A DNA stretch of 42,434 bases from Enterococcus phage vB_Efm3_KEN20 (PP582174.1), one strand, 5' to 3'; shown: positions 18,474 through 35,935, numbered from the stretch's first letter. Translations and numbers: made by a program. Notes: generated by a model not told the origin, from the sequence alone.

Positions 18474-18992
18474 TCACACCTCCTTATATTTGAATGTGTA
18501 TCCTTTTGTTTGCTTTTGTTTACCTAAACATACATCACAAATACTCCTCCTAGATACACCTAGTTCTTCACTCGCATAACGAGCGTTGATATAGACTTTT
18601 CCTGTTTCAACACAATATACTTCCTTAGACATTTTAATTAGTGCTGTACGAGTTCTATTTCCGTGATTAATATTCTCTTTTCTAGTCACCCATTCTAAAT
18701 TTGATACTTTATTGTTAGCTTTGTTCTCGTCAATATGATTAATTTGTGGCTTATTTTCTGGGTTTGGTATGAAAGCTTGTGCGACTAAGCGATGAACTGA
18801 ATATCCCTTACTTTTACTGTTCTTACATAGAATAACATTTTCATATCCATTGGGTCTAATTGAGGTTGATTTAATTCTACCTTTCAATCTATGATTTGCG
18901 CTATCTAACCTATCTACACTTCTAACTCTACCTAAGTTGCTAATTTGATACAACCCGTCATATCCTTTTATATCTTTCCAAACTTCTTCCAT
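18474..18992 (-). CDS. HNH homing endonuclease (NUMOD4/HNH_3 type), paralog A
   Basis: MEEVWKDIKGYDGLYQISNLGRV...HRLVAQAFIPNPENKPQINHIDENKANNKVSNLEW...GYTFKYKEV. Start moved to ATG 18992 (RBS AAAGAGGAGG). Own TGTGCTATCATAAT promoter upstream. Its 3' end encodes the terS RBS. Confidence 0.8.
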   Translation of the reverse strand: MEEVWKDIKGYDGLYQISNLGRVRSVDRLDSANHRLKGRIKSTSIRPNGYENVILCKNSKSKGYSVHRLVAQAFIPNPENKPQINHIDENKANNKVSNLEWVTRKENINHGNRTRTALIKMSKEVYCVETGKVYINARYASEELGVSRRSICDVCLGKQKQTKGYTFKYKEV

Positions 18993-19048
18993 AAATAAAA
19001 CCTCCTCTTTCATACTATTATGATAGCACAAATAAAGGAGGTTGTCAA

Positions 19049-19234
19049 CTATTTTTGTTCGTCCTTCATTTCGATAATCTCATAATGACGGTTGCGACCG
19101 CCTAGCTTTGTGCGAACGTCTTTAAAGTAGCCAAATTTTTTCCCATAAAATTCATCCGCAGCGAACTGTGACTTAAACTTTCTGGATTGTCCGGTAGCTA
19201 AATCTTTAACGATGATTGGTTTTGGAGCACCCAT
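19049..19234 (-). CDS. Small protein resembling the C-terminal DNA-binding domain of the HNH paralogs (remnant?)
   Basis: 61 aa; PIIVKDLATGQSRKFKSQFAADEFYG resembles PIIATNLKTGESREFYGSNECARQL of the HNH C-terminal domains; RBS GGGAGG. Confidence 0.45.
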   Translation of the reverse strand: MGAPKPIIVKDLATGQSRKFKSQFAADEFYGKKFGYFKDVRTKLGGRNRHYEIIEMKDEQK

Positions 19235-19593
19235 GTGTTTCTACCTCCCTTACTTTAGTTTGTTGAGTTAAACAAAACTCCCTTACATACCTTATTATAT
19301 CATATAAAAAGAACCCTGTGTAAAGAAACCAGGGGTCAATCATGTTTATAGGGGGAACAATCGTATAAGCGAAATAACATACTATATATAGTATGAATCC
19401 TTGATTTTCAACACAAGAAACCAGTTTTTAATTACATTTTACGAGGGAAAAGGACGTTTTTCAAAGTTGGTTTGGGGACTTTTATGTGAAGAAGAGGGGG
19501 CAGCGATTAATTCGTTATAAAAAGGTGGGCGGGTAAAAACATTTTGGTCTCCCTAAAAATATTTTTGTCTGCGCGCTTGTTTATTTAGCGCTG
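19235..19593. other. Candidate cos / packaging-recognition region
   Basis: ~360-bp non-coding stretch between the packaging HNH and the terS cluster. Strand-biased purine/G blocks (gaagagggggcagcg 19488-19505; ggtgggcggg 19524-19533). 18-bp perfect palindrome catactatatatagtatg at 19378-19395. Confidence 0.35.
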
Positions 19594-19977
19594 TTACCTA
19601 CCTCTATTTTTCCAACTGTAGCTATGTTCTTCCTTGTTGTGACACTCGTAACAGATTGACTCTAAGTTATTTAAATCAAGTCTATGTTTCCATCCATTTG
19701 GACTTCTTAATTCAATTATATGATGCACAAGGTTTGCGTTGGTGTACTTGCCTTGTGCCAAGCATACCTCGCATAGTGGTTGCTCCATTAGCTTAGCTTT
19801 ACGTGCGTTCCTCCATTGGGTTGAATGATAGAAGGTACTGTACTTCTTGTTGTCGTCATTGTATCTTACGTGCTTATTGTATTGGCTATTGTTGTACCCT
19901 TGATGTGCGTCACAGTAGCGCTCAGGTAGCGTAACATAGTTACGACAAGAAGATACAGCACACTTGCGTTGTCTCAT
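19594..19977 (-). CDS. HNH endonuclease (packaging-associated, zinc-ribbon N-terminus)
   Basis: Classic HNH motif HHIIELRSPNGWKHRLDLNNLESICYECHNKEEH. Start set at MRQRKCAVSSC (ATG 19977, RBS GAGAGGAG). Location next to cos/terS is typical of cos phages. Confidence 0.8.
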   Translation of the reverse strand: MRQRKCAVSSCRNYVTLPERYCDAHQGYNNSQYNKHVRYNDDNKKYSTFYHSTQWRNARKAKLMEQPLCEVCLAQGKYTNANLVHHIIELRSPNGWKHRLDLNNLESICYECHNKEEHSYSWKNRGR

Positions 19978-20009
19978 TGCGTTACTCCTCTCTACTATTA
20001 TATAGAAGA

Positions 20010-20034
20010 AAAGACTACTATTATTTAGTAGTCT
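20010..20034 (-). terminator. Hairpin aagactact-attattt-agtagtctt, then a TATATAAT -10 element on the minus strand
   Basis: 9-bp perfect stem overlapping the stop of the 66-aa gene. Confidence 0.5.
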
Positions 20035-20221
20035 TCTTTGTTTTAACAACGATCTTGTCTGTTGGTTGTTCTACATTGACTGATTCAGATTCTTTACGTG
20101 TTAGATCTGACGCTTTGATGTCTTGTTCAAATGGTGTATGTTTAGCACAGTATTGTGCTGGTAGCTTAACTGTTTCATTACATCCTTGTTGGTTGCAGTA
20201 CATGTATGGCAAGTGGAACAC
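20021..20221 (-). CDS. Small zinc-ribbon protein, paralog of the N-terminal Cys motif of the packaging HNH
   Basis: CNQQGCNETVKLPAQYCAKH versus CAVSSCRNYVTLPERYCDAH in the HNH; start ambiguous (GTG at 20221, TTG at 20212, ATG at 20203). Confidence 0.5.
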   Translation of the reverse strand: MFHLPYMYCNQQGCNETVKLPAQYCAKHTPFEQDIKASDLTRKESESVNVEQPTDKIVVKTKKTTK

Positions 20222-20244
20222 CTCCCTTCAGTATTAAATACGTG

Positions 20245-20412
20245 CTAGAAATTATAGTACTGTTTCTTACGTACAATCATATCATGATTCTTTACTATCT
20301 TAATGGCGTCTTCAAGTGTTGGCTCTTGATTGGATTTAGATGCTTCTAGTTTACGATACTCTTTTAATAGGTCTGTTTTATTTAGTGCTAGTAGTTGTTT
20401 GTCTGTCTTCAT
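20245..20412 (-). CDS. Hypothetical 55-aa protein, alternative or additional ORF
   Basis: Hand translation MKTDKQLLALNKTDLLKEYRKLEASKSNQEPTLEDAIKIVKNHDMIVRKKQYYNF; TTGGAGGA 7 nt upstream; overlaps ORF 20378..20566 in another frame. Confidence 0.35.
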   Translation of the reverse strand: MKTDKQLLALNKTDLLKEYRKLEASKSNQEPTLEDAIKIVKNHDMIVRKKQYYNF

Positions 20413-20566
20413 TGTTTAAGTCCTCCAATAAACCAGTAATATAATAAGTAACTTCTTCTAAATTATCTGTTGTAAATCCTTGTTGATTATTTTCGCTTTC
20501 ATAGTATTCAACAAAATATTTGTTTTTATCAGTGTCTAAATTGATATTGATATTTATCTTTATCAT
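20378..20566 (-). CDS. Hypothetical 62-aa acidic protein
   Basis: RBS TAGGAGG upstream. Confidence 0.45.
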   Translation of the reverse strand: MIKINININLDTDKNKYFVEYYESENNQQGFTTDNLEEVTYYITGLLEDLNNEDRQTTTSTK

Positions 20567-20754
20567 TTACGATTACCTCCTAATAACCAGCTCCATACGA
20601 TAACCAGTTGTGCAATGGCAAAAGCCCAATCACCTTGCTGGAATAATTGATATGGTAACTTCATACCTAAATATATAGCAATGTACCCAAAACCAATGAT
20701 AATCAAAACACTTAATATGATTGATAAAATAGTTGTCAATATGTCTTTCATCAT
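20563..20754 (-). CDS. Small two-TM membrane protein, first gene of the leftward arm
   Basis: 63 aa hydrophobic; RBS GAAGGAGG; TGATATAAT extended -10 upstream. Confidence 0.55.
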   Translation of the reverse strand: MMKDILTTILSIILSVLIIIGFGYIAIYLGMKLPYQLFQQGDWAFAIAQLVIVWSWLLGGNRK

Positions 20755-20759
20755 ATCTC

Positions 20760-21260
20760 CTCCTTCTCTTTGTTTCTATTATATCATAGATAAGGGATAC
20801 TGTGTTGGTTAACGGAACCAGTTGGCTTTATTAATTAAATAACAAATTTAAAATGTTGCGTTTTTAATAATGACGTAAAAATGTCAGTGGTAAAATGCTT
20901 TAATATCAACTATTACAGCTATTATTCTCTAATGAATGACATACGAATGACAAACGGAAAATGGCTGTATCCTTTCTCTCCCATAGCTTTTAATATGTTA
21001 TTGACATTATGACATATTATACTTATAAAAAATAAAATATAATAATACATTATCATGTAGTAACTATATATTTCCGTTTAAAATAAAATGGGGTGTCATT
21101 TTGTCATCATATCAAACATGGTCTCTCAAATGTTGATAACTCAACGTTTCTTACATTTATAATTAATGACAAAAAAGTCATTAATTATTTAGATGAGATA
21201 ATAGTTGACAATTGTATCAATAGATGGTAACATTGGTTTATAAATTAAAAGGAGGAAACA
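20760..21260. promoter_or_regulatory. Divergent early control region with an array of TGACA/TGTCA half-sites (operators or origin iterons) and divergent promoters
   Basis: AT-rich 500 bp between the two arms. Half-site pairs at 20871-20887, 20937-20952, 21002-21015, 21095-21108, an 18-bp palindrome aatgacaaaaaagtcatt at 21165-21182, and 21204-21220. Leftward TGATATAAT promoter near 20790-20800. Confidence 0.5.
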
Positions 21261-21263
21261 AAT

Positions 21264-21551
21264 ATGACTTTCAATATAATTGAGTTCAGTAATTATGAAG
21301 TAACTAAAGGAGGCATTGTATATAATAGATACCATAAACCTATTAGGCGAAAATGGGTTGGTAATAATATATACACAAAAATATATGATAGTGACAAGAA
21401 AGCACGCACAGTAAGAGTTGATAAATTAGTCTATCAAACATATGTACAAAATCCACCTTATAACTATGAATTAGAACATATTGATGGTAATCAAGCTAAC
21501 TGTAAATTAGAAAATTTAAAATATATATCACCCAAGAATAAAGTAAAATAG
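21264..21551 (+). CDS. Small HNH_3-like protein (truncated homing-endonuclease-like)
   Basis: 95 aa; ...NYEVTKGGIVYN...ELEHIDGNQANCKLENLKYIS resembles the NUMOD4 + HNH core; RBS AGGAGGA. Confidence 0.45.
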   Translation: MTFNIIEFSNYEVTKGGIVYNRYHKPIRRKWVGNNIYTKIYDSDKKARTVRVDKLVYQTYVQNPPYNYELEHIDGNQANCKLENLKYISPKNKVK

Positions 21552-21563
21552 GAGGACTAAACA

Positions 21564-21851
21564 TTGGAAGTAACATTTACTGGAACACCACACGAAATCA
21601 TGCAACAATATGATCACTGGCTAAAAACACTTGACCTTGAACAAACGCTACTATATAATAGAATCATAATCACAGGTAATAAAACAGACAAAGTACCATT
21701 ATCAGAGTATAAAAAAGTAATTCAACAAATTGCAATTAATAATGGAGGAGGAATAAAAAATATTGACAATGAAATCATGAGCTGCTACAATGTAGAAAAG
21801 AAACGATTTAGCAATGGTTTTTATATCACAGGAATCAAAATAAAACAATAA
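21564..21851 (+). CDS. Hypothetical protein (TTG start)
   Basis: 95 aa; RBS TAGGAGG 8 nt before TTG. Confidence 0.45.
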   Translation: MEVTFTGTPHEIMQQYDHWLKTLDLEQTLLYNRIIITGNKTDKVPLSEYKKVIQQIAINNGGGIKNIDNEIMSCYNVEKKRFSNGFYITGIKIKQ

Positions 21852-21856
21852 ACCAG

Positions 21857-21885
21857 TTGACACTGGTTTCAACTCATGCTATACT
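21857..21885 (+). promoter_or_regulatory. Sigma-A-type promoter TTGACA-N17-TATACT with palindrome AACCAGTtgacACTGGTT over the -35
   Basis: Exact consensus -35 and 17-nt spacer; followed by gaggagg RBS and ATG 21917. Confidence 0.6.
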
Positions 21886-21916
21886 TAATTCATAAGTTAA
21901 GAGGAGGAATAAAACA

Positions 21917-22201
21917 ATGACAAACACAGTATCAGTTTTAATCAAATCAAGCAAGAAAGAAACTCAATATAGATACGGTAAAGAACTTATCAATATTGAT
22001 CGCAGAACATTACAGCAAATTAATGGTACAACAAGCCAAGTTTTCGTAGCCAGCGAACCTCAACGATTGCTTAAAGACGTTAGTGAGTTCAGAGACGGTC
22101 TAACATATTCTCATACAGAAAGTATTAAAATAAACCCTCAATTTATTTGGTACGTTGATGACATGCCAAATATGAGAAATTATGGCAATCTTTTCAAATA
22201 A
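21917..22201 (+). CDS. Hypothetical protein
   Basis: 94 aa; RBS GAGGAGGA. Confidence 0.5.
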   Translation: MTNTVSVLIKSSKKETQYRYGKELINIDRRTLQQINGTTSQVFVASEPQRLLKDVSEFRDGLTYSHTESIKINPQFIWYVDDMPNMRNYGNLFK

Positions 22202-22205
22202 AAAG

Positions 22206-22234
22206 TTGACACAGATCAACAAGCATGCTATACT
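22206..22234 (+). promoter_or_regulatory. Sigma-A-type promoter TTGACA-N17-TATACT
   Basis: Same architecture and same downstream 5'UTR (ta(g/a)ttcataag(a/t)taagaggagga) as the promoter at 21857. Confidence 0.6.
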
Positions 22235-22265
22235 TAGTTCATAAGATAAGAGGAGGAAAACAACA

Positions 22266-22505
22266 ATGAACACAATGACACACGAAAAATACAACGAATT
22301 ACAAAAGAAAATGGACATGCTTTACAGCGATTTTATTGACTTAGCAGCAGACGCTGAAGAAAGTAACGAAGGTTTTAGTAAAGTTTCAGACTGGCTAGAC
22401 AACGAGATAGAAGCCATTTTAGAATGGGCTGACACAAATGATAGCACAATTTTAGCTGAATTAGCCATTGACTACTCAAAACTGAAAGGAATGTTAGCAT
22501 GTTAG
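22266..22505 (+). CDS. Hypothetical acidic protein
   Basis: 79 aa; RBS GAGGAGGA. Confidence 0.5.
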   Translation: MNTMTHEKYNELQKKMDMLYSDFIDLAADAEESNEGFSKVSDWLDNEIEAILEWADTNDSTILAELAIDYSKLKGMLAC

Positions 22506-22825
22506 CAAAATATTACACTGATATCATGAAAATACAACTTAGAGAGTTTAAACGACTCTCTAAGGCTCATGATAAGGCAACTGAACGGTTAATGAAGATG
22601 AATGAACCAGATAACATGCAAAGCCACACCACACAACGGTATTGGCAGACACTCAACAAAATAGAACAATGTGAAAAAGAAATGCGCACCATAATTGAGG
22701 AGCTAAATGAGTTAGAAAAGCGCTTTCACTGGTTAGATAACTTACACCAAGAACGCTTTCATTTTCTAACTAAAGACGCAGAGTTATTTCAGAAAATTGT
22801 CACACTAATGGATATTTACAAATAG
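22499..22825 (+). CDS. Hypothetical coiled-coil protein
   Basis: 108 aa; overlaps the upstream stop. Confidence 0.45.
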   Translation: MLAKYYTDIMKIQLREFKRLSKAHDKATERLMKMNEPDNMQSHTTQRYWQTLNKIEQCEKEMRTIIEELNELEKRFHWLDNLHQERFHFLTKDAELFQKIVTLMDIYK

Positions 22826-22836
22826 GAGGAAATAAA

Positions 22837-23154
22837 ATGAAAAAACTATTATTAGCAACAGAAGAGTATATTATGGTAACACCTGAATTATTTAACGACT
22901 TAACTAACGTGAAAGTTAATCTACCAAACACCCAAAATCCATATATTGTGAAAATACCTAGTGAGTTACCTACAACAGTATTAGGAATGGAAGTAAAAGT
23001 TATGGACTATGAGGATTGGACAAAGTATGATGGTATCACTCAAGAAAAGTTAAAATTAGACGTGAAAACACGCTTATATGAGGCAGAAGAAGAATTTAAT
23101 AAACAGCAAAAACACTACAACACAATTCTAAAACAATTGGAGGAATGGAAATAA
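22837..23154 (+). CDS. Hypothetical protein
   Basis: 105 aa; RBS TAGGAGGA. Confidence 0.5.
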   Translation: MKKLLLATEEYIMVTPELFNDLTNVKVNLPNTQNPYIVKIPSELPTTVLGMEVKVMDYEDWTKYDGITQEKLKLDVKTRLYEAEEEFNKQQKHYNTILKQLEEWK

Positions 23155-23155
23155 A

Positions 23156-23317
23156 ATGACCACATTTATTATTCTAGCAAAAAGACACACTCAAACTATT
23201 CAATTAAGCTACCTAGCAGAAACGATGAGAGCAGCAATTAATGAATTTCGCTTGACATATCCCAAAAAGCATTATAAAATTATTGACTGTAAGGAAGCAA
23301 CAAATTATAATAGATAG
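23156..23317 (+). CDS. Hypothetical 53-aa protein
   Basis: Hand translation MTTFIILAKRHTQTIQLSYLAETMRAAINEFRLTYPKKHYKIIDCKEATNYNR; GGAGGAATGG upstream; below the ORF-track cutoff. Confidence 0.35.
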   Translation: MTTFIILAKRHTQTIQLSYLAETMRAAINEFRLTYPKKHYKIIDCKEATNYNR

Positions 23318-23328
23318 GAGGCAGTAAA

Positions 23329-23541
23329 ATGTATATTGTAGAAATTATTGATCCAGAAAAAGCAGAGTTAGCATACAGTCCAGAAGTTTTCAGCAATCAA
23401 GAAGAAGCAGAAGAGTATCTACAAGAAGTGTGTGAAGATACACATGATTTAGAAGGAATAATAGTATCAGCACTACTAGAAGAGGCTGTTTTCAATAATA
23501 GAAAGATTCTTGTATCAGCAGACATTGTACATCACACATAA
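23329..23541 (+). CDS. Hypothetical highly acidic 70-aa protein
   Basis: RBS TAGGAGG; Glu/Asp-rich. Confidence 0.5.
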   Translation: MYIVEIIDPEKAELAYSPEVFSNQEEAEEYLQEVCEDTHDLEGIIVSALLEEAVFNNRKILVSADIVHHT

Positions 23542-23608
23542 TATGTAACAAGCACACTAATAAATAGTAAAATTAGTAGTGTAATCATAACATAGGAGGA
23601 AAAAAGAA

Positions 23609-23986
23609 ATGACAATATTAAAACGGTACAAATGTATAAAATCAAATGATGAACAAAGATTTGCTGTGGGAGAAATATATCCATTATATAATAACGGTTA
23701 TAAAAATTACGTTGTAGCGAATAATAATGTGAATTGGTATGAAAATGAATTTCCAATTATTAAACGAGACTATGGTATTGAATTTGAGGAGGTAAAAGAA
23801 AAAATATTTGATCTAAACAAACTGATCACATTAACCAGAATTGATGAAAACACGGTATATGTAAACATTAATCACATTGCAGCTTTCTATCACAACAAAG
23901 CTTGGGAATATACTATTGTTATACTGTCAGACGGTACTCAATTAGATATAAAAGACTCAGTAGAATCAATTGCTAACTATTTTTAA
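23609..23986 (+). CDS. Hypothetical protein
   Basis: 125 aa; RBS TAGGAGGA. Confidence 0.5.
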
Positions 23987-24015
23987 TCAAAAGTATAGCA
24001 CAAATGAAAAGTTTG

Positions 24016-24024
24016 TGTTATACT
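24016..24024 (+). promoter_or_regulatory. Extended -10 element TGtTATACT ahead of HNH paralog B
   Basis: Matches the -10 TATACT of the early promoters; no clear -35. Confidence 0.35.
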
Positions 24025-24047
24025 CATTACATAAGGGGGAATTAATA

Positions 24048-24557
24048 ATGAATGAAATTTGGAAAGATGTTAAAGATTATGAAGAACTCTATCAAGTGAG
24101 TAATTTGGGAAGAGTTAAGCGAGTTAATACTAACCGTATTTTGAAGGGTAGTAAAGAACCAATAGGCTATCTAAGAGTTAGATTATCTACAAACGGTATT
24201 GTATCTACTAAGAAAATCCACCGTCTAGTAGCAGAAGCATTTATCCCAAACTCTGAAAACAAACCACAAGTAAACCATATTGATGAGGATAAGACAAATA
24301 ACATGGTTTCAAATCTTGAATGGTCTACAAGTAAAGAAAATAATAACCACGGAACACACAATATAAGATCGGCTAAAACGCGAGGTATTCCAATCATTGC
24401 AACTAATATAAAAACCGGAGAATATCAAGAGTTCTATGGAACAGCTGAATGCGCTAGACAATTAGGTTTACATCAACAAAATATCACATCAGTATTAAAA
24501 GGTAGACTGAATCAAACTGGGGACTACACGTTTAAATATAAGGAGGAATTAAAATAA
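24048..24557 (+). CDS. HNH homing endonuclease (NUMOD4/HNH_3), paralog B
   Basis: [26 protein letters not shown]...[35 protein letters not shown]...[12 protein letters not shown]. Start at ATG 24048 with AAGGGGGA RBS. The ORF-track N-terminal extension lacks an RBS. Confidence 0.8.
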
Positions 24558-26143
24558 TGAATGAACTAACAAAAATAGATTATTCAGCACCTGTTGAGGA
24601 ACTACTACCTGTTTCAAATAAAAACTTTCCAAGTGAGGAATTTGTGGACTTCAATTCAGAATTAGGAAGGATGTATTACGGAGGTAAAGACGGTACACAA
24701 GCCAAATTTGAGATTCAACAGGAATTATTTATTGATAAATTCAACCAGCTAGCCTATGTGTACGCTCACCCTAACTTAAACGCTCCATATGTATACAACG
24801 CAGACACACGTATCTGGTCTGAGGTAAATCTAGGTAGTTACAAATATTCAGATTGGTATTTTGAGAACATACTAGCACCAAAATTCACACCACAATTTAG
24901 AAATCCAGAGTTTGGGAATGAAATTCGTAAAGAAATGAAGAAAATAGCTCCTGAGTTAGCTAATCGCTCCATGACACGTGGCGAACATGCCCCATTAGGT
25001 GATAACCCTAACCCAAATATTATAGCCTTTGAAAATGGAACATATGACTTTAAAACAAATGACATTAGAGAGACCAGGTTAGAAGATTATCATACTCTTC
25101 AATTGCCATATCCGTTAATTAAAACAGATGAGACAGATGAATTACTCGCAAAACAATGGATTGACTATTTGCTGAAAGACCAAGCTCAGACATTGTATGA
25201 GTATATTGGTTACATGTATTATAGAGAGTACAAATATCAATCTATTTTATACCTATTGGGTAATGGGTCAAACGGTAAATCGTATGTAGGTGGATTTATC
25301 ATGAACAAATTAATTGGGTTCAAAAACAGTTCAGCAGTTGGTCTAGACAGCTTAGCAGATAAAAATAACCGTTTTGACAAAGCTTCATTACACCATAAAT
25401 TACTAAACTTTGAAGCAGACTCAAGCGCCAACTTTGTAAAGGGTACAGAGACACTGAAAAAGCTTTCAGGCGGTCTTGACGCTGTCCACGCTGAGAAAAA
25501 AGGTAAAGATGCGTTTAGTTTTACCAACTATGCAAAACTAATGTTCTCCATGAATGAATTACCTGCATTTAACGACCGCACAAATGGATGGTATAGACGT
25601 ATTTTGATTTTAAATTTCAATACCAATCTTGACACAGCAGAAGCACGTGAGCGCATTAATGAGTTCAACAAGCAACGTGAGGAACGTGAATCAAAAGAAC
25701 AACTAGGTAAATTCGCATGGTTCTGTATTCAGCAATTTAAAAAGATTTTAGACACAGGTGCAAATGGTGAAAACCCATTTACAGAGACAGAGGATATGAT
25801 TGAATTTAAGAAAGCTTATATTGAATCAAATGACCCATCTAAAGAGTTCTTGAGTGAAGTACCTGTCATTGTGGAAGATGAAGAAGGTACTGTTAACCTA
25901 ACACTGTTGAAGAATATTTTTAATGTGTACACTAAAGAGAACAATATCAATAAATCAATGAACTGGCGCACAATGAAGGAGCTACTGTTGAAGCAAGGTT
26001 TTGAAGAAAAGCGTACAAGTAAAGCTCGTGTACTCACTGGTCTCAAAATCGCACGTAACGGAGATAACGAATCCATTAGACCTTATCTAATGAACGCACT
26101 CGCAGGGACAGAGTATGTAAACATTTTCAATGATATACAGTAG
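24557..26143 (+). CDS. DNA primase-helicase (D5_N / P4-type C-terminal SF3 helicase domain)
   Basis: 528 aa; Walker A LLGNGSNGKSY; D5/P4-family arrangement; RBS AAGGAGGA supplied by the 3' end of the upstream HNH gene. Confidence 0.7.
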   Translation: MNELTKIDYSAPVEELLPVSNKNFPSEEFVDFNSELGRMYYGGKDGTQAKFEIQQELFIDKFNQLAYVYAHPNLNAPYVYNADTRIWSEVNLGSYKYSDWYFENILAPKFTPQFRNPEFGNEIRKEMKKIAPELANRSMTRGEHAPLGDNPNPNIIAFENGTYDFKTNDIRETRLEDYHTLQLPYPLIKTDETDELLAKQWIDYLLKDQAQTLYEYIGYMYYREYKYQSILYLLGNGSNGKSYVGGFIMNKLIGFKNSSAVGLDSLADKNNRFDKASLHHKLLNFEADSSANFVKGTETLKKLSGGLDAVHAEKKGKDAFSFTNYAKLMFSMNELPAFNDRTNGWYRRILILNFNTNLDTAEARERINEFNKQREERESKEQLGKFAWFCIQQFKKILDTGANGENPFTETEDMIEFKKAYIESNDPSKEFLSEVPVIVEDEEGTVNLTLLKNIFNVYTKENNINKSMNWRTMKELLLKQGFEEKRTSKARVLTGLKIARNGDNESIRPYLMNALAGTEYVNIFNDIQ

Positions 26144-26155
26144 GAGGTTTTATTT

Positions 26156-26653
26156 ATGAAAGAAATTTGGAAAGATATTGAAGGATATGAAGGCGTTTAT
26201 CATGTGAGTAACTTAGGACGAGTGAAGAGAGTTGCAACAAATAGAGTTTTACAACCATATAGAAACAAAGTTGGCTATTTACTAGTTTATTTATGTAAAA
26301 ACGGTAAGCGTAAAACTCATAGAATCCACCGTTTAGTAGCACAATCTTTCATACCAAACCCAGAAAATAAACCAGAAGTTAATCACCTAGATGAAAATAA
26401 GATTAATAATATGGTTTCAAATCTAGAATGGTCAACTAGAAAAGAAAACTGTAACTATGGAACGCGTAATGAAAGACTGAGTATCCCAATCATAGCAACT
26501 AATCTAAAGACTGGTGAATCTAGAGAGTTCTATGGATCAAATGAATGTGCTAGACAATTAGCATTAAATACCGCACACATTACAAGTGTTCTAAAAGGTA
26601 GATTGAAACAAACAGGTGGATACACATTCCAATATAAGGAGGAAGAGGAATGA
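26156..26653 (+). CDS. HNH homing endonuclease, paralog C
   Basis: [26 protein letters not shown]...[35 protein letters not shown]...GGYTFQYKEEEE. Confidence 0.8.
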   Translation: MKEIWKDIEGYEGVYHVSNLGRVKRVATNRVLQPYRNKVGYLLVYLCKNGKRKTHRIHRLVAQSFIPNPENKPEVNHLDENKINNMVSNLEWSTRKENCNYGTRNERLSIPIIATNLKTGESREFYGSNECARQLALNTAHITSVLKGRLKQTGGYTFQYKEEEE

Positions 26654-26874: not shown

Positions 26875-26889
26875 TTTTAAACTTTACCC

Positions 26890-27231: not shown

Positions 27232-27232
27232 G

Positions 27233-27657: not shown

Positions 27658-27750
27658 GAATGTTAACAAGTGATGAAATATTCACTAAGGAAGAGCAGTT
27701 GTGCTACTATCATAATATAATAAAATCTTTGATGCAAAAATGGAGGAAGA

Positions 27751-28315: not shown

Positions 28316-28493
28316 ACTACGAGACTATCTAAGTTGTGTGGATATTGATGAAACAATTTTAGAAATTAATGGGATAGAGTATTTACCACAACAATTAGTA
28401 AGCTCGTTCTTTTCAGATCAAATTGATTTTATGAAAGTATATAATATTTATGTGAACTCAAATAATATGATAACGGCGGTGATTCAATTTTGA
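28308..28493 (+). CDS. Hypothetical 61-aa protein
   Basis: ATG 28308 with GGAGGAG RBS; the longer ORF-track version (28200) is read mostly inside the VRR-NUC gene. Confidence 0.4.
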   Translation: MIELRDYLSCVDIDETILEINGIEYLPQQLVSSFFSDQIDFMKVYNIYVNSNNMITAVIQF

Positions 28494-28657
28494 TTAAAAA
28501 CTATTTAATTACGTATGAAAAGAAGACATATGATGGACGTTATATTGAGACAACTACTCACCAAATACGAATTCCAGCATTAACACTTTTTGACGCTGTA
28601 GACTACGCACACAATACCCTAGAACTAGAAGGAATCAAGGAGGTACGTTTAGCATGA
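28490..28657 (+). CDS. Hypothetical 55-aa protein (TTG start only)
   Basis: Open frame LIKNYLITYEKKTYDGRYIETTTHQIRIPALTLFDAVDYAHNTLELEGIKEVRLA; weak RBS. Confidence 0.25.
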   Translation: MIKNYLITYEKKTYDGRYIETTTHQIRIPALTLFDAVDYAHNTLELEGIKEVRLA

Positions 28658-28770
28658 GTTGGATTATGAAAGCAAAAATATTGAATATACAACAGGCGTC
28701 AGTATACGCAGCAAATGAAGAGTATATGAAGTTAGTAAATATATGGTATAAATGGGAGGTATTAAGTTGA
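28654..28770 (+). CDS. Hypothetical 38-aa protein
   Basis: MSWIMKAKILNIQQASVYAANEEYMKLVNIWYKWEVLS; GGAGG 10 nt upstream; its stop overlaps the helicase start. Confidence 0.3.
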   Translation: MSWIMKAKILNIQQASVYAANEEYMKLVNIWYKWEVLS

Positions 28771-30044: not shown

Positions 30045-30196
30045 AAAAGAGATATAAAGGATACTTCAAGAAGCCAACACGTACGCTACCTAATATTGAA
30101 TTTAAAAAGCAAGTGATTAAGTCATTCAACTTCACAGAAAAACCACGTGTAGGACTGTGGGTAAAGACGTATCTAAAATATATTAATAAGTTGTAG
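30041..30196 (+). CDS. Hypothetical 51-aa basic protein
   Basis: MKKRYKGYFKKPTRTLPNIEFKKQVIKSFNFTEKPRVGLWVKTYLKYINKL; ATGA overlap with the helicase stop. Confidence 0.35.
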   Translation: MKKRYKGYFKKPTRTLPNIEFKKQVIKSFNFTEKPRVGLWVKTYLKYINKL

Positions 30197-30203
30197 AAAT
30201 TAG

Positions 30204-30232
30204 TTGACACCCCTTAAATGGGGTGTTATACT
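30204..30232 (+). promoter_or_regulatory. Sigma-A-type promoter TTGACA-N17-TATACT with spacer palindrome CACCCCttaaatGGGGTG
   Basis: Exact consensus and spacing; perfect 6-bp inverted repeat inside the spacer. Confidence 0.6.
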
Positions 30233-30260
30233 TAGTACATAAATAAGAGGAGGAAGCAAA

Positions 30261-31001
30261 ATGAAACAATTAAGACTGAAGAAGAATGGTAAAGCACCAC
30301 TAGTGGCTGGAGCGTTCAATGGAGAATCAGAAGAGTTAATTCAAAAATGGATACAAGAAGGGGGTAACGTTGGAACACTAACCGGGTCAAAAAGTGGCAT
30401 TGCAGTCATTGACATTGATAATCATAATGGAGTGGATGGTCTTGGTAACTTGAAAGAGTTCTTAGATACGTATGACATCACTTTACCAAAAACGCAAGTC
30501 ATTAAAACTCCAAGTGGTGGACTACACTACTACTTTAAATTAGATGAAAAATACAATGACACGCAATTCATTCAAAACCATTCACAACTTGCAGGGGTTG
30601 ATTTCCAAGTCCACGGCAGGTACGTTGTAGCACCACCTAGCCAAATTGATGGTAACTATTATAAGGTAGTACGTGACGTAGAAATGGCAGAATTACCTGA
30701 GAAATGGTTAGAAATATTCACAGATAAAAGTATTACTAAAAAGAATAAACCTCGCGAGAAGAAATGGACTGGTCAATTAATGGAAAGTATACTTACTGGC
30801 GCAGGAGCAGGGTCAAGGAATATATTTTTAGCCTCAACAATTGGCAAGCTATTCGCAACAGGAATGGATCATGACGCGGTTAGGGTATGGAGTTTATACG
30901 TAAACCAGATTTCATTAAATCCACCACTACCAGAAGAGGAGGTATTACGAACATATGACTCAGTTAGAAAACGTGAATTACGAAGAATGGCGGACAATTA
31001 A
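30261..31001 (+). CDS. Prim-Pol type DNA primase (bifunctional primase/polymerase N-terminal domain)
   Basis: [10 protein letters not shown]...GGLHYYF...GRYVVAPPS pattern typical of the Prim-Pol catalytic domain; RBS GAGGAGGAAG. Confidence 0.6.
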
Positions 31002-31488
31002 AGGATATGAAGGTATTTATGAAATAAGTAGTTTTGGTAGAGTTAGAAGTTTGAATTACAATAACCAAAAAGGAAATATAAAAGTTAGACCAAGTGTTCC
31101 TCATAAACATGGGTATAGACAAATTAAACTAGGTAATAAAAGCAAATTAATACACCGCTTAGTAGCAGAAGCATTTATCCCAAACCATGAAAATAAACCT
31201 TGTGTTAATCATCTGGACGAGGATAAGACAAATAATAGAGTTGATAACTTAGAATGGGTAACAAAGAAAGAAAATAACAATTATGGTACTAAGAATATTA
31301 GAAGCGCATACAAGAATAAATACATTTCTGGAAACTTCAAATCCGTTATATGCTCAAATGGAGTAGAGTATTTTAGTGTGTCAGAAGCTTGTCGTCAATT
31401 AGATTTAGACCCAAGTACTGTCGTAAAAATTCTAAAAGGTACACGTAAAAGTACAGGAGGCTACACATTTAAATATAAGGAGGAGTAA
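30955..31488 (+). CDS. HNH homing endonuclease, paralog D (overlaps the 3' end of the Prim-Pol gene)
   Basis: ...[24 protein letters not shown]...[35 protein letters not shown]...[10 protein letters not shown]. Confidence 0.75.
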
Positions 31489-31691
31489 TGATGGATAAGC
31501 AATTATTTAACACAGAGTTTACAAATGGATATTGTGTGACAGTATTTAGTCAATCAAGATTTGAGTTAAAATATTATGTAGAGGTTTTCCATGTTAATGA
31601 ACCACAAGATACTCATAGAGTTGAATTTCATACAGCGCGCGAGGTTTTTGGATATTTATCAGATATTCAAAACTATAAACAAAAAGACTAG
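31488..31691 (+). CDS. Hypothetical protein
   Basis: 67 aa; RBS AAGGAGGAG comes from the HNH 3' end. Confidence 0.5.
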   Translation: MMDKQLFNTEFTNGYCVTVFSQSRFELKYYVEVFHVNEPQDTHRVEFHTAREVFGYLSDIQNYKQKD

Positions 31692-31707
31692 TCAATTGAC
31701 TAGTCTT
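31684..31707 (+). terminator. 24-bp perfect palindrome AAGACTAGTCAATTGACTAGTCTT
   Basis: Overlaps the stop of the 67-aa gene; followed by a purine-rich tract rather than a T-run, so its role as a terminator is uncertain. Confidence 0.45.
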
Positions 31708-31767
31708 AACGAGAGGAGGGAGGAGGAATCCCTATAATTAATTATAGCATAAAATAAAAGTTTTGTG

Positions 31768-31796
31768 TTGACATTGAAACAATATTATGTTAAGAT
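31768..31796 (+). promoter_or_regulatory. Promoter TTGACA-N17-TAAGAT (TGt-extended)
   Basis: Consensus -35 and 17-nt spacer; preceded by the 16-bp palindrome CTATAATTAATTATAG at 31732-31747. Confidence 0.45.
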
Positions 31797-31828
31797 TGAG
31801 ATAGTTAAACGAGAAAGGATTTGATAAA

Positions 31829-32140
31829 ATGTTTAATGAATCTGAAGAACTACAGAATACACTTGATAAAATAATACAGGGTTCACGTATTACAGGCAGT
31901 GTATTTGAACCTGAAGAATTAAAAAATACAAAACGCTACAAAACCAGCTCAGGTAAACAACTCTTTGACGTGCTAGAAGATGATTTACTAACTTATGAAG
32001 AATTACGTGGTTTCTACAAAGCGAACATTTACAAATATACACACAGATATAAACAAAAAAACGGCATTGAAGATTTGAAAAAAGTAAAGGTCTATGTAGA
32101 TCAACTAATAAAACTGGAGGAAAAACAAGATGAGATTTGA
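31829..32140 (+). CDS. Hypothetical protein (possibly DUF3310-like)
   Basis: 103 aa; the segment LFDVLEDDLLTYEELRGFYKANIYKYTHRYKQKNGIEDLKKVKVYVDQL resembles small conserved phage proteins; unverified. Confidence 0.4.
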   Translation: MFNESEELQNTLDKIIQGSRITGSVFEPEELKNTKRYKTSSGKQLFDVLEDDLLTYEELRGFYKANIYKYTHRYKQKNGIEDLKKVKVYVDQLIKLEEKQDEI

Positions 32141-32600
32141 ACCATTAAACGAACCCTATGATATGTATGCAATAACAGATGAAGGTCACGTGTTTCATTT
32201 AGACAAAGAACGATATGAACAAGAAATAGTTGATCCAAAAAATGGAAAGATGTATGTAGTACTTAACGGATCACACAAAAAGTCACGTAAATTCTACGTC
32301 TCTCAATTAGTAGCAGATATGTTTGTTAGAAATGAGCATAACTTAGGATATTTATATTTCAAAGATGGTAACGTACAAAATAGTCATTACACAAATATTG
32401 GTTACGCTATTAATCCAAAAGAAGGGGTAGAACGTGTGGCACGTCCTTTCAGAAATAAAGTAGAGCCAAAACGCCATGCCTTGATTGTTGCTATTGGAGA
32501 AGCGTGTGAGAAAAAGGATTGGAAAGAAGCTAATAAACTAGGAAAAGAACTTTGGCAATTGGAGGGCGCATCGTATGAAAACAGAAACCATGAGTTTTGA
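32130..32600 (+). CDS. Degenerate HNH_3-like protein (catalytic His replaced)
   Basis: VSQLVADMFV...LYFKDGNVQNSHYTNIGY parallels HRLVAEAFI...[15 protein letters not shown] of the HNH paralogs but lacks the first His; RBS GGAGGA. Confidence 0.4.
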   Translation: MRFEPLNEPYDMYAITDEGHVFHLDKERYEQEIVDPKNGKMYVVLNGSHKKSRKFYVSQLVADMFVRNEHNLGYLYFKDGNVQNSHYTNIGYAINPKEGVERVARPFRNKVEPKRHALIVAIGEACEKKDWKEANKLGKELWQLEGASYENRNHEF

Positions 32601-33336
32601 TATTCACTATACAGGAAGTAAAGGTAACTGCGCTTCTATCTATTACGATAATTTAGGATTCTTAATTGACATAGGGCGGCCATATAAATATATTGAGCCA
32701 TATTTATTCAACAAGCAATTTATTTTACTAACTCATCGTCACCAGGATCATCTTGTATATACAACATACAAGAAAATACGTGAGAACTTTCCACACATTA
32801 AAATATTAGGAAACCAGGAAGTGAATGAGAATATAGTTAAACGTAAATTACCTGAATTAGATATTATCTTCAAAGATGACTTCCAATTTCAAATCGGAGA
32901 GGTAAAATTCACAACACTTCAGAATTATCATGGAGCTGGTGAGGAATACACAGAAACGCATGGTTTCATACTAGAGAGTCCTTCTCAGAATTTATTGTTT
33001 GCTACAGATTTAAGTACTTTAGTAGATTACGAAGAATATTGCTTGACAAATAAAATTAAGTTTGATATTATTCTTTTAGAGGCTAACTATGATCCGCAAG
33101 TAATAGGGTTATCAGAATACATGAAAATACACAGTGGGTATAACACATTCAACAACGGGTCATATCGTCACTTGAGTACAATTGATAGAGAGGAGTTTGT
33201 AACTAAATTTAAGAACCCAGGCGCTATTGATATTGAACTTCATGTTTCAGAACGCTATCGCAGCTTTGAAGGATTGATGAAGTTAGAAAAAGGAAAAATT
33301 ACCCAAAAAGATGTTGACAACTACTTAAATAGATGA
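32575..33336 (+). CDS. Metallo-beta-lactamase-fold hydrolase
   Basis: 253 aa with LLTHRHQDHL (HxHxDH motif); RBS GGAGGG. Confidence 0.65.
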   Translation: MKTETMSFDIHYTGSKGNCASIYYDNLGFLIDIGRPYKYIEPYLFNKQFILLTHRHQDHLVYTTYKKIRENFPHIKILGNQEVNENIVKRKLPELDIIFKDDFQFQIGEVKFTTLQNYHGAGEEYTETHGFILESPSQNLLFATDLSTLVDYEEYCLTNKIKFDIILLEANYDPQVIGLSEYMKIHSGYNTFNNGSYRHLSTIDREEFVTKFKNPGAIDIELHVSERYRSFEGLMKLEKGKITQKDVDNYLNR

Positions 33337-33371
33337 TACAATTAAAACATAAAGACAGAGGAGGAAGAAAA

Positions 33372-33599
33372 ATGAGCTATCAATATGGAGATCTAGTAAA
33401 ATTCACAAACAATTATGGAATGCACGCATCACAAGGTGATGAAGGAACAGTGCAACACATTGACAAGTATGGAAATATCTTAGTGCTAGTTGAGTCAGGA
33501 GAGTTTGCAGCACGCTTTGAGGAGGTACGTGACGAAGATATTGAACTGATTGACCGTTTGAGTGATGAAGATTTGGATTTATTGAAGGAGGAGCTGTGA
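33372..33599 (+). CDS. Hypothetical acidic protein
   Basis: Start at ATG 33372 (AGAGGAGGA upstream); the ORF-track start at 33333 has no RBS. Confidence 0.5.
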   Translation: MSYQYGDLVKFTNNYGMHASQGDEGTVQHIDKYGNILVLVESGEFAARFEEVRDEDIELIDRLSDEDLDLLKEEL

Positions 33600-33601
33600 G
33601 A

Positions 33602-33769
33602 ATGAACTATAAAACACTATTAAAGTTAGATTATGGATACACTGAAAACCAGTTGTTTGATTTAATTGAGAAGTATAAATGGTTATTCAAATTAAATTAT
33701 ACGATTGATGAACTTTTTGCAGTAGAGTATAAACGCCTTAAGATGGAGGATGAAAAACATGGCATTTGA
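33602..33769 (+). CDS. Hypothetical 55-aa protein
   Basis: MNYKTLLKLDYGYTENQLFDLIEKYKWLFKLNYTIDELFAVEYKRLKMEDEKHGI; RBS AGGAGG inside the upstream gene end. Confidence 0.3.
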   Translation: MNYKTLLKLDYGYTENQLFDLIEKYKWLFKLNYTIDELFAVEYKRLKMEDEKHGI

Positions 33770-34568
33770 ATTATCAATTCAATCTACAGGTAAACATGAA
33801 ATACAATTCATTGGCTATGAAAAAACACTTGATGATGTTAGGAGATTAGCGGAGCGTATGAAAGAGCAAGAAGTGACTGAGGAAAACATTATTGAAAACA
33901 AAAAACTTCTTGCTGAAATTCGTAAAGAAATTAAAAAATTAGACTCAGAACGTCTAGCTGTTAAGCGTGAAATTATGACACCCTATGATGAACTAAATGA
34001 AAAAATAAAAGTATTGAAAGATGTACTTGGTGAAGGTGAGGGTCATATAAATGCCCAAATTAAAGAGATTACTGCACGCGAACAGGAGCAGAGGAAAATA
34101 CAAATCAATGACTTATTTAAGAAGTATCAGAAGTCATATAACGCTCCACAGTGGCTTACCTTTGATAAGTTCATTGCCAAAAATCCAACACTAATTACCA
34201 ATAAGGCAACAAGTAACAAAAAGATACGTGAAGCAGTGGTTTCTTATTTTGAAACATTTAAACAGGACTATGACCTATTAAAAACACAATATCCAGACAA
34301 GGATGATCGTTCTGCCATTTTGATTGCCTACTCTAAAAATGGTCATAATATGCAAGACGCAATACTTGACTATACAAGCATGATTGCAGAGAAAGAGCGT
34401 CTTGAGATTGAGCAAAGACGAGTGAAAGAAACGAAAGTTCCAGATATTGTTATTATCACTGGCAACGAGCAAAAACAGGAGGCTGCGAAACCAGTTGAAT
34501 ATGTAACAATTAATATTAAGAAAGAAGACTTGAAGAAACTTAAAATTGATTATGAGATTGTAAAATAA
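33759..34568 (+). CDS. Hypothetical coiled-coil protein (DUF1351-like position next to the SSB-tail protein)
   Basis: Start at MAFELSIQ (ATG 33759, GGAGGA 9 nt upstream); Lys/Glu-rich coiled-coil. Confidence 0.45.
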   Translation: MAFELSIQSTGKHEIQFIGYEKTLDDVRRLAERMKEQEVTEENIIENKKLLAEIRKEIKKLDSERLAVKREIMTPYDELNEKIKVLKDVLGEGEGHINAQIKEITAREQEQRKIQINDLFKKYQKSYNAPQWLTFDKFIAKNPTLITNKATSNKKIREAVVSYFETFKQDYDLLKTQYPDKDDRSAILIAYSKNGHNMQDAILDYTSMIAEKERLEIEQRRVKETKVPDIVIITGNEQKQEAAKPVEYVTINIKKEDLKKLKIDYEIVK

Positions 34569-34593
34569 ACTACAACACAAATAGGGGAATATA

Positions 34594-34602
34594 TGTTATA
34601 CT
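34594..34602 (+). promoter_or_regulatory. Extended -10 element TGtTATACT
   Basis: Same -10 hexamer as the early promoters; no clear -35. Confidence 0.3.
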
Positions 34603-34641
34603 TATTAAGTAATAAAAACAAATTAATTGGAGGAAATTAAA

Positions 34642-35334
34642 ATGTCAGAATTGAAAAAAGTAATTATTGTTAGCGCAGAGGAAGATGATATCAGTGTGAA
34701 ATTACAGGTGGCCAGTGAGGATTACAGCGCTATCTATGAAGCAGCAGTTTTTAAACAAACATATGACAAAGACTCTAAAACGTGGAATGACTTCACAGAT
34801 GAAGATACAAAAGGTAAAGAACGACTAGCTAAAGCATTAGAAATTTTAGGTGGCTCGTTTGACAACTTGGAAGATAAAGAGTTAGAAATGTATGTAGACG
34901 AAGAGACGGGAAAAGCCTACTTTGAAGAAGGAAGTTCATTTAAGAAAATTGAGAAACCACTGGTTTCACTAAAACGTTTGAAACAAGTACCAATTGTTGA
35001 AATCAAAGATAGTGCCAAAGGACGAGCAGTAGTTGTTGAGCATGACGGAAAATACTACTCATTTAATTTCAACTCAGGCGTATATATTGAGAAATTGAAC
35101 AAATTTATTCCAAATCAAGCGAAACTTGCAAAAGCTAAGGCACGCTTCAATGAATTATTTGAAGATGTAAATGTAACATGGGATACTGCTGACATGGCAG
35201 TTGGAATGATTGTAGATTGTACAGTTAATAAGAATATGTTAGACCCAAAATCTCCTTACGGTTGGTTGGAGGCACAAGCTCTTGATCCAAACGACCAGAA
35301 AGAAGTAGTATCAGACGAAGAATTACCATTTTAA
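34642..35334 (+). CDS. Non-canonical ssDNA-binding-like protein carrying an SSB-type acidic C-terminal tip (..SDEELPF)
   Basis: 231 aa; the C-terminus DEELPF mimics the bacterial SSB tail (DDD[I/L]PF); no canonical OB-fold SSB N-terminus recognised; RBS GGAGGAAA. Confidence 0.45.
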   Translation: MSELKKVIIVSAEEDDISVKLQVASEDYSAIYEAAVFKQTYDKDSKTWNDFTDEDTKGKERLAKALEILGGSFDNLEDKELEMYVDEETGKAYFEEGSSFKKIEKPLVSLKRLKQVPIVEIKDSAKGRAVVVEHDGKYYSFNFNSGVYIEKLNKFIPNQAKLAKAKARFNELFEDVNVTWDTADMAVGMIVDCTVNKNMLDPKSPYGWLEAQALDPNDQKEVVSDEELPF

Positions 35335-35363
35335 AATAAAGTAAAAAGAGTTGACCTTATGTG

Positions 35364-35393
35364 TTGACTCTTTTCTTTTATCATGCTATTATA
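35364..35393 (+). promoter_or_regulatory. Promoter TTGACT-N18-TGcTATTAT with the shared 5'UTR motif attatataaatataga
   Basis: Tandem GTTGAC motifs (35350-35369); same -10/UTR block as at 26911-26926. Confidence 0.45.
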
Positions 35394-35422
35394 TAAATAT
35401 AGAAATAAGGAGGATGAATAAA

Positions 35423-35935
35423 ATGAAAGAAATTTGGAAAGACATTGAAGGGTATGAAGGATTATACCAAGTAAGTAACTTGGGGAGAGTGAAAAGAGTT
35501 ACAACAGGTAGGATTTTGAAAGGTGGTAAAGATAGAGGTGGCTATCTAATAGTTAGCTTATATAAAAACAATATTGAATCTAAAAAGTTAATTCATCGTC
35601 TAGTAGCTCAAGCTTTTATACCAAACACTGAGAATAAACCACAAGTTAATCATATAGACGAAGATAAAACAAATAATATGGTTTCAAATCTAAATTGGAT
35701 GACAGCTAAAGAAAACTCAAATCATGGAACACATAATGAAAGAATGAGTAAAACGAAAAGTATTCCAATCATTGTAACTGATATTAAAACTGGTGAATCT
35801 ACAGAGTTCAATAGTGGTAAAGAATGTGCTAGACAATTAGGTCTGCATAAGCAAGGTATTAGCGCAGTTCTAAAAGGTAAACTCAGACAAACTGGAGGCT
35901 ACACATTCAAATACTTAAATGAAGGAGTAGACTAA
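35423..35935 (+). CDS. HNH homing endonuclease, paralog E
   Basis: [26 protein letters not shown]...[35 protein letters not shown]...GGYTFKYLNEGVD; start at ATG 35423 (AAGGAGG). Confidence 0.8.
   Translation: MKEIWKDIEGYEGLYQVSNLGRVKRVTTGRILKGGKDRGGYLIVSLYKNNIESKKLIHRLVAQAFIPNTENKPQVNHIDEDKTNNMVSNLNWMTAKENSNHGTHNERMSKTKSIPIIVTDIKTGESTEFNSGKECARQLGLHKQGISAVLKGKLRQTGGYTFKYLNEGVD

Follow-up and report, generated by a model that had tools for sequence, protein, structure and literature searches.

Five HNH endonuclease genes in an Enterococcus faecium phage genome

The sequence examined in this work, referred to throughout as the window, is a stretch of 42,434 nucleotides (nt) of Enterococcus phage vB_Efm3_KEN20 (PP582174.1), and its subject is a set of five related HNH endonuclease genes distributed between positions 18,474 and 35,935. 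The window is 99.9% identical to Enterococcus phage vB_Efm3_KEN18 (PP582173.1), a 43.3-kb E. faecium siphovirus, and belongs to a group of E. faecium phages that is in use for phage-therapy work (PMC11210271). Window positions are obtained by adding 16161 to the coordinates of the KEN18 record, and in the comparisons that follow the name KEN18 is given to the copies and sites of the window phage itself. The five insertions and their sites are labelled A to E in coordinate order, and the letters F to J are kept for further sites found in relatives.

HNH-A (18474-18992, - strand) lies directly upstream of terS, whose ATG is at 18468, and carries a Shine-Dalgarno (SD) sequence, AAGGAGG, in its tail at 18479-18485. 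HNH-B (24048-24557, + strand) is directly upstream of the primase gene, with a tail SD at 24540-24546 and the primase ATG at 24557. HNH-C (26156-26653, + strand) is located between the primase gene and an open reading frame (ORF) at 26650, and has AGGAGG at both of its ends, at 26142-26147 and within 26637-26643. HNH-D (30955-31488, + strand) overlaps the 3′ end of the Prim-Pol gene, as a previous examination of the DNA by itself (the sequence-only reading) had described; the overlap comprises its first 47 nt, which are read in another frame. The tail SD of HNH-D occupies 31477-31483, and the next ATG follows at 31488. HNH-E (35423-35935, + strand) has the tail SD GAAGGAG at 35921-35927, followed by a new ATGACA at 35937 and by the native ATG of the downstream gene at 35943.

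All five ORFs scored above the Pfam gathering thresholds for NUMOD4 (PF07463), HNH_3 (PF13392) and I-HmuI_NUMOD-like (PF22083), so the five full-length paralogs that had been proposed at these coordinates do exist. They are labelled 'HNH endonuclease' in GenBank, as are the ORFs at 21264, 32130 and 19594. When copy E was compared with I-HmuI (PDB 1U3E), the alignment extended over the full length of the protein (E 8e-24, residues 5-165 against 3-171 of 174). The catalytic beta-beta-alpha-metal residues of I-HmuI are reportedly His75, Asn87 and Asn96, with Asp74 as metal ligand, and the equivalents of the first three are kept in all five copies and also in ORF 21264.

Amino-acid identity covers a range of 42-77%, with 65-72% among copies B, C and E and 42-50% for A and D against the other copies. 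The 5′ ends of C and E had been judged by eye to be ~85% identical in nucleotides, a figure that measurement lowered to 76% for the first 120 nt and 73% for the whole gene. The ratio of nonsynonymous to synonymous substitution (dN/dS) between copies was 0.13-0.31, which indicates purifying selection and, therefore, functional proteins. Nucleotide homology among the five extends from the SD upstream of the ATG to AAATATAAGGAGG, and the flanks are unrelated. A search with Rfam found no group I intron in the window; as the ORFs also abut or overlap intact neighbours, the genes are free-standing and not intron-encoded.

The family to which these genes belong is very large: it comprises at least 7,919 close homologues and 153,978 representative clusters, and 2,038 of 50,697 phage records contain a match. 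Its share of this genome is smaller than the tenth that had been attributed to HNH-derived DNA, since the five genes make up 5.9%; the proportion rises to 8.1% with three putative relatives, and to 9.2% only if an unrelated HNH gene of the packaging type is counted as well.

Occupancy of the insertion sites in related phages

The distribution of the family was followed in eight whole genomes of related phages with 83-88% nucleotide identity (Aramis, KEN21, dArtagnan, KEN22, EF36P1, LG62, IME-EFm1 and RG1), which together with KEN18 make up the nine phages referred to below. A tblastn search with the five proteins against these nine genomes identified members of the family at ten sites, 28 in all; RG1 had none.

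Each of the sites A to E was empty in two to seven of the eight relatives, if site-C loci occupied by another small ORF are counted as empty. Site A was empty in RG1 and IME-EFm1. Site B was empty in every relative but KEN22, among them RG1, KEN21, EF36P1, Aramis and dArtagnan, and no relative (0/8) had an HNH gene at site C, which was cleanly empty in dArtagnan and KEN22. Six relatives had an empty site D, of two kinds, and it was occupied in KEN22 and Aramis; five had an empty site E. Thus, the empty target sites that had been sought as a sign of mobility were found at all five positions.

The tree of the family did not follow the insertion sites. A single clade with 65-85% identity included copies from site A (KEN21, LG62 and EF36P1), from B, C and E, and from site F (EF36P1). 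Conversely, at least four lineages that are 35-54% identical were found at site A, and two lineages with 43% identity at site D. Close copies in other phages were Aramis-E for HNH-E (77%), KEN21-A for HNH-B (73%) and EF36P1-F for HNH-C (72%). As no site is filled in all the relatives and the tree is not arranged by site, the genes can be described as mobile in the comparative sense, in agreement with the earlier proposal of a family of free-standing homing-endonuclease genes.

A grouping of the C-terminal DNA-binding domains by insertion site, as in Skunavirus, was considered and rejected because the association was weak: identity was 50% within and 44% between sites for the C-terminal part, compared with 62% and 59% for the N-terminal part.

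The flanks of two sites were informative about how the genes may be transferred. HNH-B is 100% identical in KEN22, where it is included in a tract of 98-100% identity that extends upstream. At site D, the 5′ part of the KEN18 Prim-Pol gene is 95-97% identical to that of KEN21 and dArtagnan, both with an empty site D. The last 150 nt of the gene, in contrast, are 81-85% identical to those of the occupied KEN22 and Aramis and of IME-EFm1, where the site is scarred (see below), against 69-71% for RG1, LG62, dArtagnan and KEN21, in which D is empty. Such a linkage between the 3′ allele of Prim-Pol and the site-D endonuclease gene is the trace that co-conversion would be expected to leave.

The site-D member of Aramis (~31705-32213, - strand) is an intact 169-amino-acid (aa) protein encoded downstream of Prim-Pol, in what appears in GenBank as an unannotated gap of 466 nt, and is 93% identical to the KEN22 copy at the same site.

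Sequence of the junctions

When the junctions were compared base by base, the insertions were located at the SD or at the start codon of the downstream gene. The empty site A reads CCAAAGGAGGATTAAACAAATGGCAAGA, and a small ORF ends there with PKED on the terS SD, with no endonuclease gene. In the occupied site, a degenerate relic of this sequence (GAAGGACGAACAAAAATAG in KEN18, CCAAAAGAAGAATTATAAAT in Aramis) is followed by a block of ~64 nt with a promoter and an SD, by the endonuclease gene, and by a new SD, spacer and ATG for terS. The small ORF 19049-19234 now has the KEN18 relic (19049-19067, - strand) as its 3′ end, and we infer from the alignment of this relic with CCAAAGGAGGATTAAACAAATGG of the empty site that it is what remains of the native terS SD and spacer. 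The new SD and spacer, AAGGAGTGATAAC, are the same in Aramis and KEN21 though their endonuclease genes are only 45% identical.

Two kinds of empty allele were distinguished at site D. In the first type, the Prim-Pol protein ends with RRMEE(E/D) on ATGGAGGAAGAATGATG. In the occupied site, it ends with RRMADN, GGAGGA is replaced by GGCGGA, and the same bases encode in another frame the N-terminus of the endonuclease, EEWRT. The second type, present in IME-EFm1 (31690-31776) and EF36P1 (23255-23341), reads CGAAGAATGGCGGACG[T/A]TTAAATATAAGGAGGACAACTGATG; the endonuclease gene is here reduced to its left end and its tail, which meet at the microhomology ATTAAA/TTTAAA, with the first codons fused to the last (..GGCGGACGTTTAAATATAAGGAGG..). 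The Prim-Pol allele is here of the occupied type (RRMAD), and the only SD is the tail of the element, TATAAGGAGGA. By its sequence this second type is a deletion scar, at which the downstream gene would now depend on an SD derived from the element.

At site E, promoter, SD and ATGAAT are all still present in the empty alleles (IME-EFm1, EF36P1, LG62 and KEN22). In KEN18, the native promoter, SD and ATG now drive HNH-E, and the 3′ end of the element adds GAAGGAGTAGACTAACATGACA before the native ATGAAT; the GAAGGAG and the extra ATGACA included in this addition are absent from the empty sites.

Junctions B and C were less informative. HNH-B is flanked by an imperfect direct repeat of 26-28 nt formed by the SD, a spacer and ATGAATGAA (left copy 24031-24056, right copy 24538-24565, + strand), for which a repeat search returned 15 nt at 93% and 13 nt at 100% identity; the HNH-B protein starts with MNE, as does the primase. 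The empty site C of dArtagnan and KEN22 contains a single TAGGAGG (..GTAGAATAGGAGGAAGTAGAATGAAC), and KEN18 reads ..ACAGTAGGAGG|TTTTATTTATG..HNH..CAATATAAGGAGG|AAGAGGAATGAAC, so that the junction falls within the SD, which is duplicated. At site F, in relatives, both the start codon and the SD of the helicase gene are inside the 3′ end of the endonuclease gene, and the SD is provided by the GG codons of the GGY motif.

These comparisons bear on the proposal that every copy supplies a replacement ribosome-binding site (RBS) to the next gene. The proposal is borne out by the alignments with empty sites at A, D and E, where the downstream SD was supplied by the element, and we infer the same elsewhere; the junctions at B and C do not allow the source of the downstream SD to be decided.

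SD sequences in the tails of the endonuclease genes

In all five copies the last codons contain an SD (AAGGAGG or GAAGGAG) situated 5-12 nt before the next start. The sequence-only reading had ascribed it in every copy to the codons for KYKEE, a peptide that is present literally only in B (KYKEELK) and D (KYKEE), C having QYKEE (QYKEEEE) and the C-termini of A and E being KYKEV and KYLNEGVD. The SD itself is conserved beyond this genome, as tails that encode it were found in ~83% of the 120 closest homologues. These tails begin with KE (56), KG (21) or xN(E/K)G (~20), with xNEG and NGG also among the types named, and translate AAGGAG, AAAGGAG and GAAGGAG in three reading frames. Since the same SD is read in three frames, the constraint acts on the nucleotides.

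Among the best 150 matches in a library of representatives at 50% identity, most were proteins of 245-966 aa with two to six tandem NUMOD4-HNH units, which may be arrays of endonucleases that were read through or true multi-unit proteins. Single-unit proteins accounted for 16 of the 150, and about half of them had tails of the KE or KG type, a sample too small to generalise.

Promoters upstream of the insertions

Several copies had been said to bring their own promoter, which holds for A and not for B and E. The promoter of HNH-A, of the sigma-70 type (TTGACA, 17-nt spacer, TATCAT, with an extended -10 TG; 19048-19020, - strand; 11/12 match in the scan), belongs to the ~64-nt block, which is common to all six occupied A sites that bear a promoter and absent from the empty ones. 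In contrast, the extended -10 sequence TGtTATACT before HNH-B and the promoter-like site before HNH-E (TTGACT/TATTAT; 35364-35392, + strand; 10/12 match in the scan) are present in phages with the corresponding site empty and are therefore native.

A terminator-like hairpin of 12 bp (35344-35374, + strand) overlaps the -35 hexamer of the site before HNH-E; the same hairpin and promoter are found in relatives in which site E is empty.

Probable mobility of the family and alternative explanations

Taken together, the window phage probably carries a population of free-standing I-HmuI-like HNH homing-endonuclease genes that are mobile among relatives and inserted at SD sequences or start codons, a reading to which we assign a probability of roughly 80%. 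The evidence supports mobility of the homing type and does not demonstrate it. What the sequence-only reading had observed is thereby largely confirmed, and its interpretation in part. In each protein, NUMOD4 is the N-terminal domain and is followed by an HNH nuclease and, at the C-terminus, by a helix-turn-helix domain that binds DNA. As in I-HmuI and the T4 mob/seg enzymes, by analogy, the probable first step is a nick or cut, close to the insertion site of the enzyme, in the allele of a co-infecting relative that has no endonuclease gene; recombinational repair would then copy the gene and the adjacent flank into the cut allele. The comparisons show that members of the family have changed site and have also displaced one another within a site. 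Colonisation of new sites probably takes place via microhomology-mediated recombination at SD and start-codon sequences, and between occupied sites the conserved ends of the genes, 5′ and 3′, probably allow cassettes to be swapped.

The genes downstream of the insertions are predicted to be often essential (terS, primase, the gene after Prim-Pol and, in relatives, the helicase). After insertion, one SD would serve the endonuclease and a second one, placed in the codons right after the last domain motif GGYTFKY, would serve the host gene. At A, D and E this second SD arrived with the element, the original one having decayed or been captured by the endonuclease gene. An embedded SD would make the insertion nearly neutral and would penalise imprecise deletion.

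Several observations weigh against this reading or limit it. Its homing component is drawn from the comparison of nine genomes, and at B, C and E presence or absence alone does not give the direction of change, gain or loss. The sign of co-conversion at B is weak because other tracts with 100% identity exist, in phages that are generally mosaic. No link with occupancy was found for the flanking alleles of terS and primase, and the primase flank showed no allele pattern. In the proteins themselves, the metal ligand Asp74 of I-HmuI is replaced by Asn. As for the tails, the source of the downstream SD at B and C was left undecided above, the members at sites G, H, I and J of the relatives have no SD-encoding tail, and an SD inside the upstream ORF was found in 28 of the 72 neighbour pairs of the window phage that do not involve HNH genes (39%), a frequency that makes five out of five only a mild enrichment. 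The arrangement may thus follow from tight packing and not from adaptation.

Indeed, the most serious alternative is that the overlap between tail and RBS reflects nothing more than generic compactness, with the sequence past the last constrained codon free to become the SD of the neighbour. In addition to the ordinary gene pairs with an embedded SD, this alternative accounts for the gap of 15 nt or less in 43 of 77 gene pairs, for the small ORF that ends on the terS SD in the empty site A, for tails that differ in amino acids and in reading frame, and for the members at G to J. It explains less easily why all five genes abut the next one (-4 to +5 nt) with upstream gaps that vary from -47 to +88 nt, why A, D and E differ from the empty sites in their 3′ SD and spacer, why the unrelated lineages of Aramis and KEN21 have the SD and spacer of site A in common, or why the scar at D retains the tail. 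On balance, packing alone seems a somewhat doubtful explanation, with a sizeable minority of the probability on its side. The idea that the cassettes were built so that insertion does not break host gene expression goes too far, as it implies design and an embedded SD is the normal gene packing of this phage.

An improbable alternative is that the genes are nucleases retained for the benefit of the host phage, in exclusion, in packaging or in the start of replication or recombination, and that the differences among genomes result from modular recombination and loss. A maintained function is indicated by the dN/dS values between copies, the neighbours are replication and packaging genes, mosaicism affects the whole group, and ORF 32130, which is HNH-like, belongs to the fixed core of these phages. 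Moreover, the Skunavirus homologues produced marker exclusion on expression (PMC12724721). However, marker exclusion is itself a signature of homing endonucleases, and none of the genes can be essential, as RG1 has none and the other relatives have different subsets. The HNH gene of the packaging type is a different one (PF01844, 19594-20049), present in the nine phages, and truncated copies and a deletion scar fit a cycle of invasion, decay and loss.

Finally, duplication of the five copies within this genome and divergence in place with no transfer between phages would agree with the 65-72% identity and the common 5′ and 3′ ends of B, C and E, but is highly improbable, because for each KEN18 copy some other phage has one that is at least as close, in many cases at a different site, KEN22 has a B copy with 100% identity, and occupancy differs at every site.

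A general rule for compact Gram-positive phages can be put forward, tentatively. I-HmuI-like genes would enter at the SD or start codon of the target with an SD at both cassette ends, take over the native RBS and sometimes the promoter, and install the RBS of the element, sometimes with its start codon. The native SD would then decay, the host gene would come to depend on the tail, and only precise deletions that keep the tail would survive; the scar of IME-EFm1 and EF36P1 has the appearance of such a deletion. The rule, if true, would amount to a translational 'addiction' combined with neutral insertion, with a parallel in the promoters that the seg and mob genes of T4 contain.

Comparison with known endonuclease systems

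I-HmuI and I-HmuII are HNH nicking endonucleases encoded in DNA-polymerase introns of the Bacillus phages SPO1 and SP82. The KEN18 proteins resemble I-HmuI in their three-part architecture, in the catalytic His/Asn/Asn and in the C-terminal motif GYTF(K/R)Y. They differ in that I-HmuI is encoded within a group I intron, whereas the KEN18 genes are intergenic and have Asn as the equivalent of Asp74.

In T4, the free-standing endonuclease genes often lack a promoter of their own, and their retention is favoured by host promoters situated within them (PMC2988022). The KEN18 genes are similar to the T4 mob (HNH) and seg (GIY-YIG) genes in that several intergenic, co-oriented copies show variable occupancy among relatives, and in that the cassettes either lack a promoter (here B, C, D and E) or have their own (here A). 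The embedded signal is different, a promoter in T4 and in KEN18 the SD of the next gene, sometimes with its start codon. A further difference concerns T4 I-TevI and mobE, which have hairpins that sequester the RBS. No such hairpins were found in KEN18, where the 5′ untranslated regions of the genes fold no better than shuffled sequence (z-scores 0.2-1.4), and the HNH subfamily is also different.

A further parallel is with the lactococcal Skunavirus (936-group) phages. In Yu et al. (2025), these siphoviruses of ~30 kb are described as having one to eight I-HmuI-like HNH genes each, at 11 sites and with remnants, and marker exclusion is demonstrated (PMC12724721). The same study describes recurrent sites mostly in the replication module, truncated remnants and a separate, universal HNH gene of the packaging type, three features that are repeated here (PMC12724721). 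By the same account, the Skunavirus endonucleases group by site (PMC12724721), unlike those studied here, where five sites have a clade in common and lineages with only 35-54% identity are found at single sites.

With respect to the HNH proteins associated with the terminase of cos phages (PF01844), HNH-A is similar in that it adjoins terS, and different in that it is an HNH_3 protein with NUMOD4. The possibility that HNH-A is a packaging HNH was ruled out on this basis and by its absence from RG1 and IME-EFm1, which indicates that it is not a packaging factor. The true member of that group is the gene at 19594-20049 (- strand; PF01844, PHROG-144), which lies upstream of the region of terS, has no relationship to the I-HmuI-like family and was not listed in the sequence-only reading.

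The basic phenomenon is thus already known, and the junction data extend the idea of embedded host signals from promoters to ribosome-binding sites; the base-level evidence for insertion at SD and start codons, the scar and the mismatch between sites and lineages may be new. One of the main sources of mosaicism in phages of therapeutic and dairy interest is the presence of free-standing HNH homing endonucleases in multiple copies, and this phage group is a compact and well-sampled example, with five to ten recurrent sites, empty, occupied and scarred alleles, and replacement of cassettes at the same site. The elements shape both the set of genes in these phages and the alleles found at terS, Prim-Pol and other neighbours. 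In practical terms, cocktails that mix relatives will swap these elements, and engineered HNH deletions must spare the embedded RBS of the downstream, often essential, gene.

Putative decayed relatives and other nearby genes

Three further ORFs had been taken for decayed copies of the family, and only the first of them was confirmed as such. ORF 21264-21551 (+ strand) encodes a truncated member of 95 aa with NUMOD4 and the HNH motif, in which the catalytic His/Asn residues are kept and the C-terminal DNA-binding domain is missing. Its relationship to the family is supported by hhalign (probability 99.7%, E 1.6e-25) and by a match to PHROG 959 (E 2e-17); its dN/dS is 0.23, and it is found only in KEN18 and KEN22.

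ORF 32130-32600 (+ strand) is an HNH-like gene without the catalytic His (PHROG 959, E 2e-11; hhalign probability 54%) that overlaps the start of a metallo-hydrolase gene. It is present in the nine phages with 85-95% amino-acid identity and a dN/dS of 0.04-0.13, values that correspond to strong purifying selection, and is therefore not decaying. Its sequence and distribution identify it as a fixed, functional core gene related to the family, neither mobile nor decaying, and it may be a domesticated, catalytically dead endonuclease.

The third candidate, ORF 19049-19234 (- strand), is a small gene of 61 aa before terS (PHROG 10805). Its assignment as debris of a C-terminal domain was not supported, as no Pfam match was obtained even at E 10 and hhalign gave only 58% (E 1e-4), and since it is conserved in all nine phages it was treated as a separate small gene. 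Its homologues in EF36P1 (32646-32829) and dArtagnan (263-446) appear to be frameshifted, as each was recovered by tblastn as two pieces in different frames.

The first ~300 nt of terS (18010-18468, - strand) exist in two allele classes that are 59-72% identical, compared with 77-97% for the 3′ part, and the classes are independent of the occupancy of site A. Endonuclease genes of other kinds are also present in the relatives. In KEN22, a 'homing endonuclease' of another type (13515-14180) precedes the tape-measure gene in the structural module, and in LG62 an 'intron-associated endonuclease' (6294-7013), whose C-terminus has the I-HmuI-like DNA-binding domain in common with the family, is located among the neck genes.

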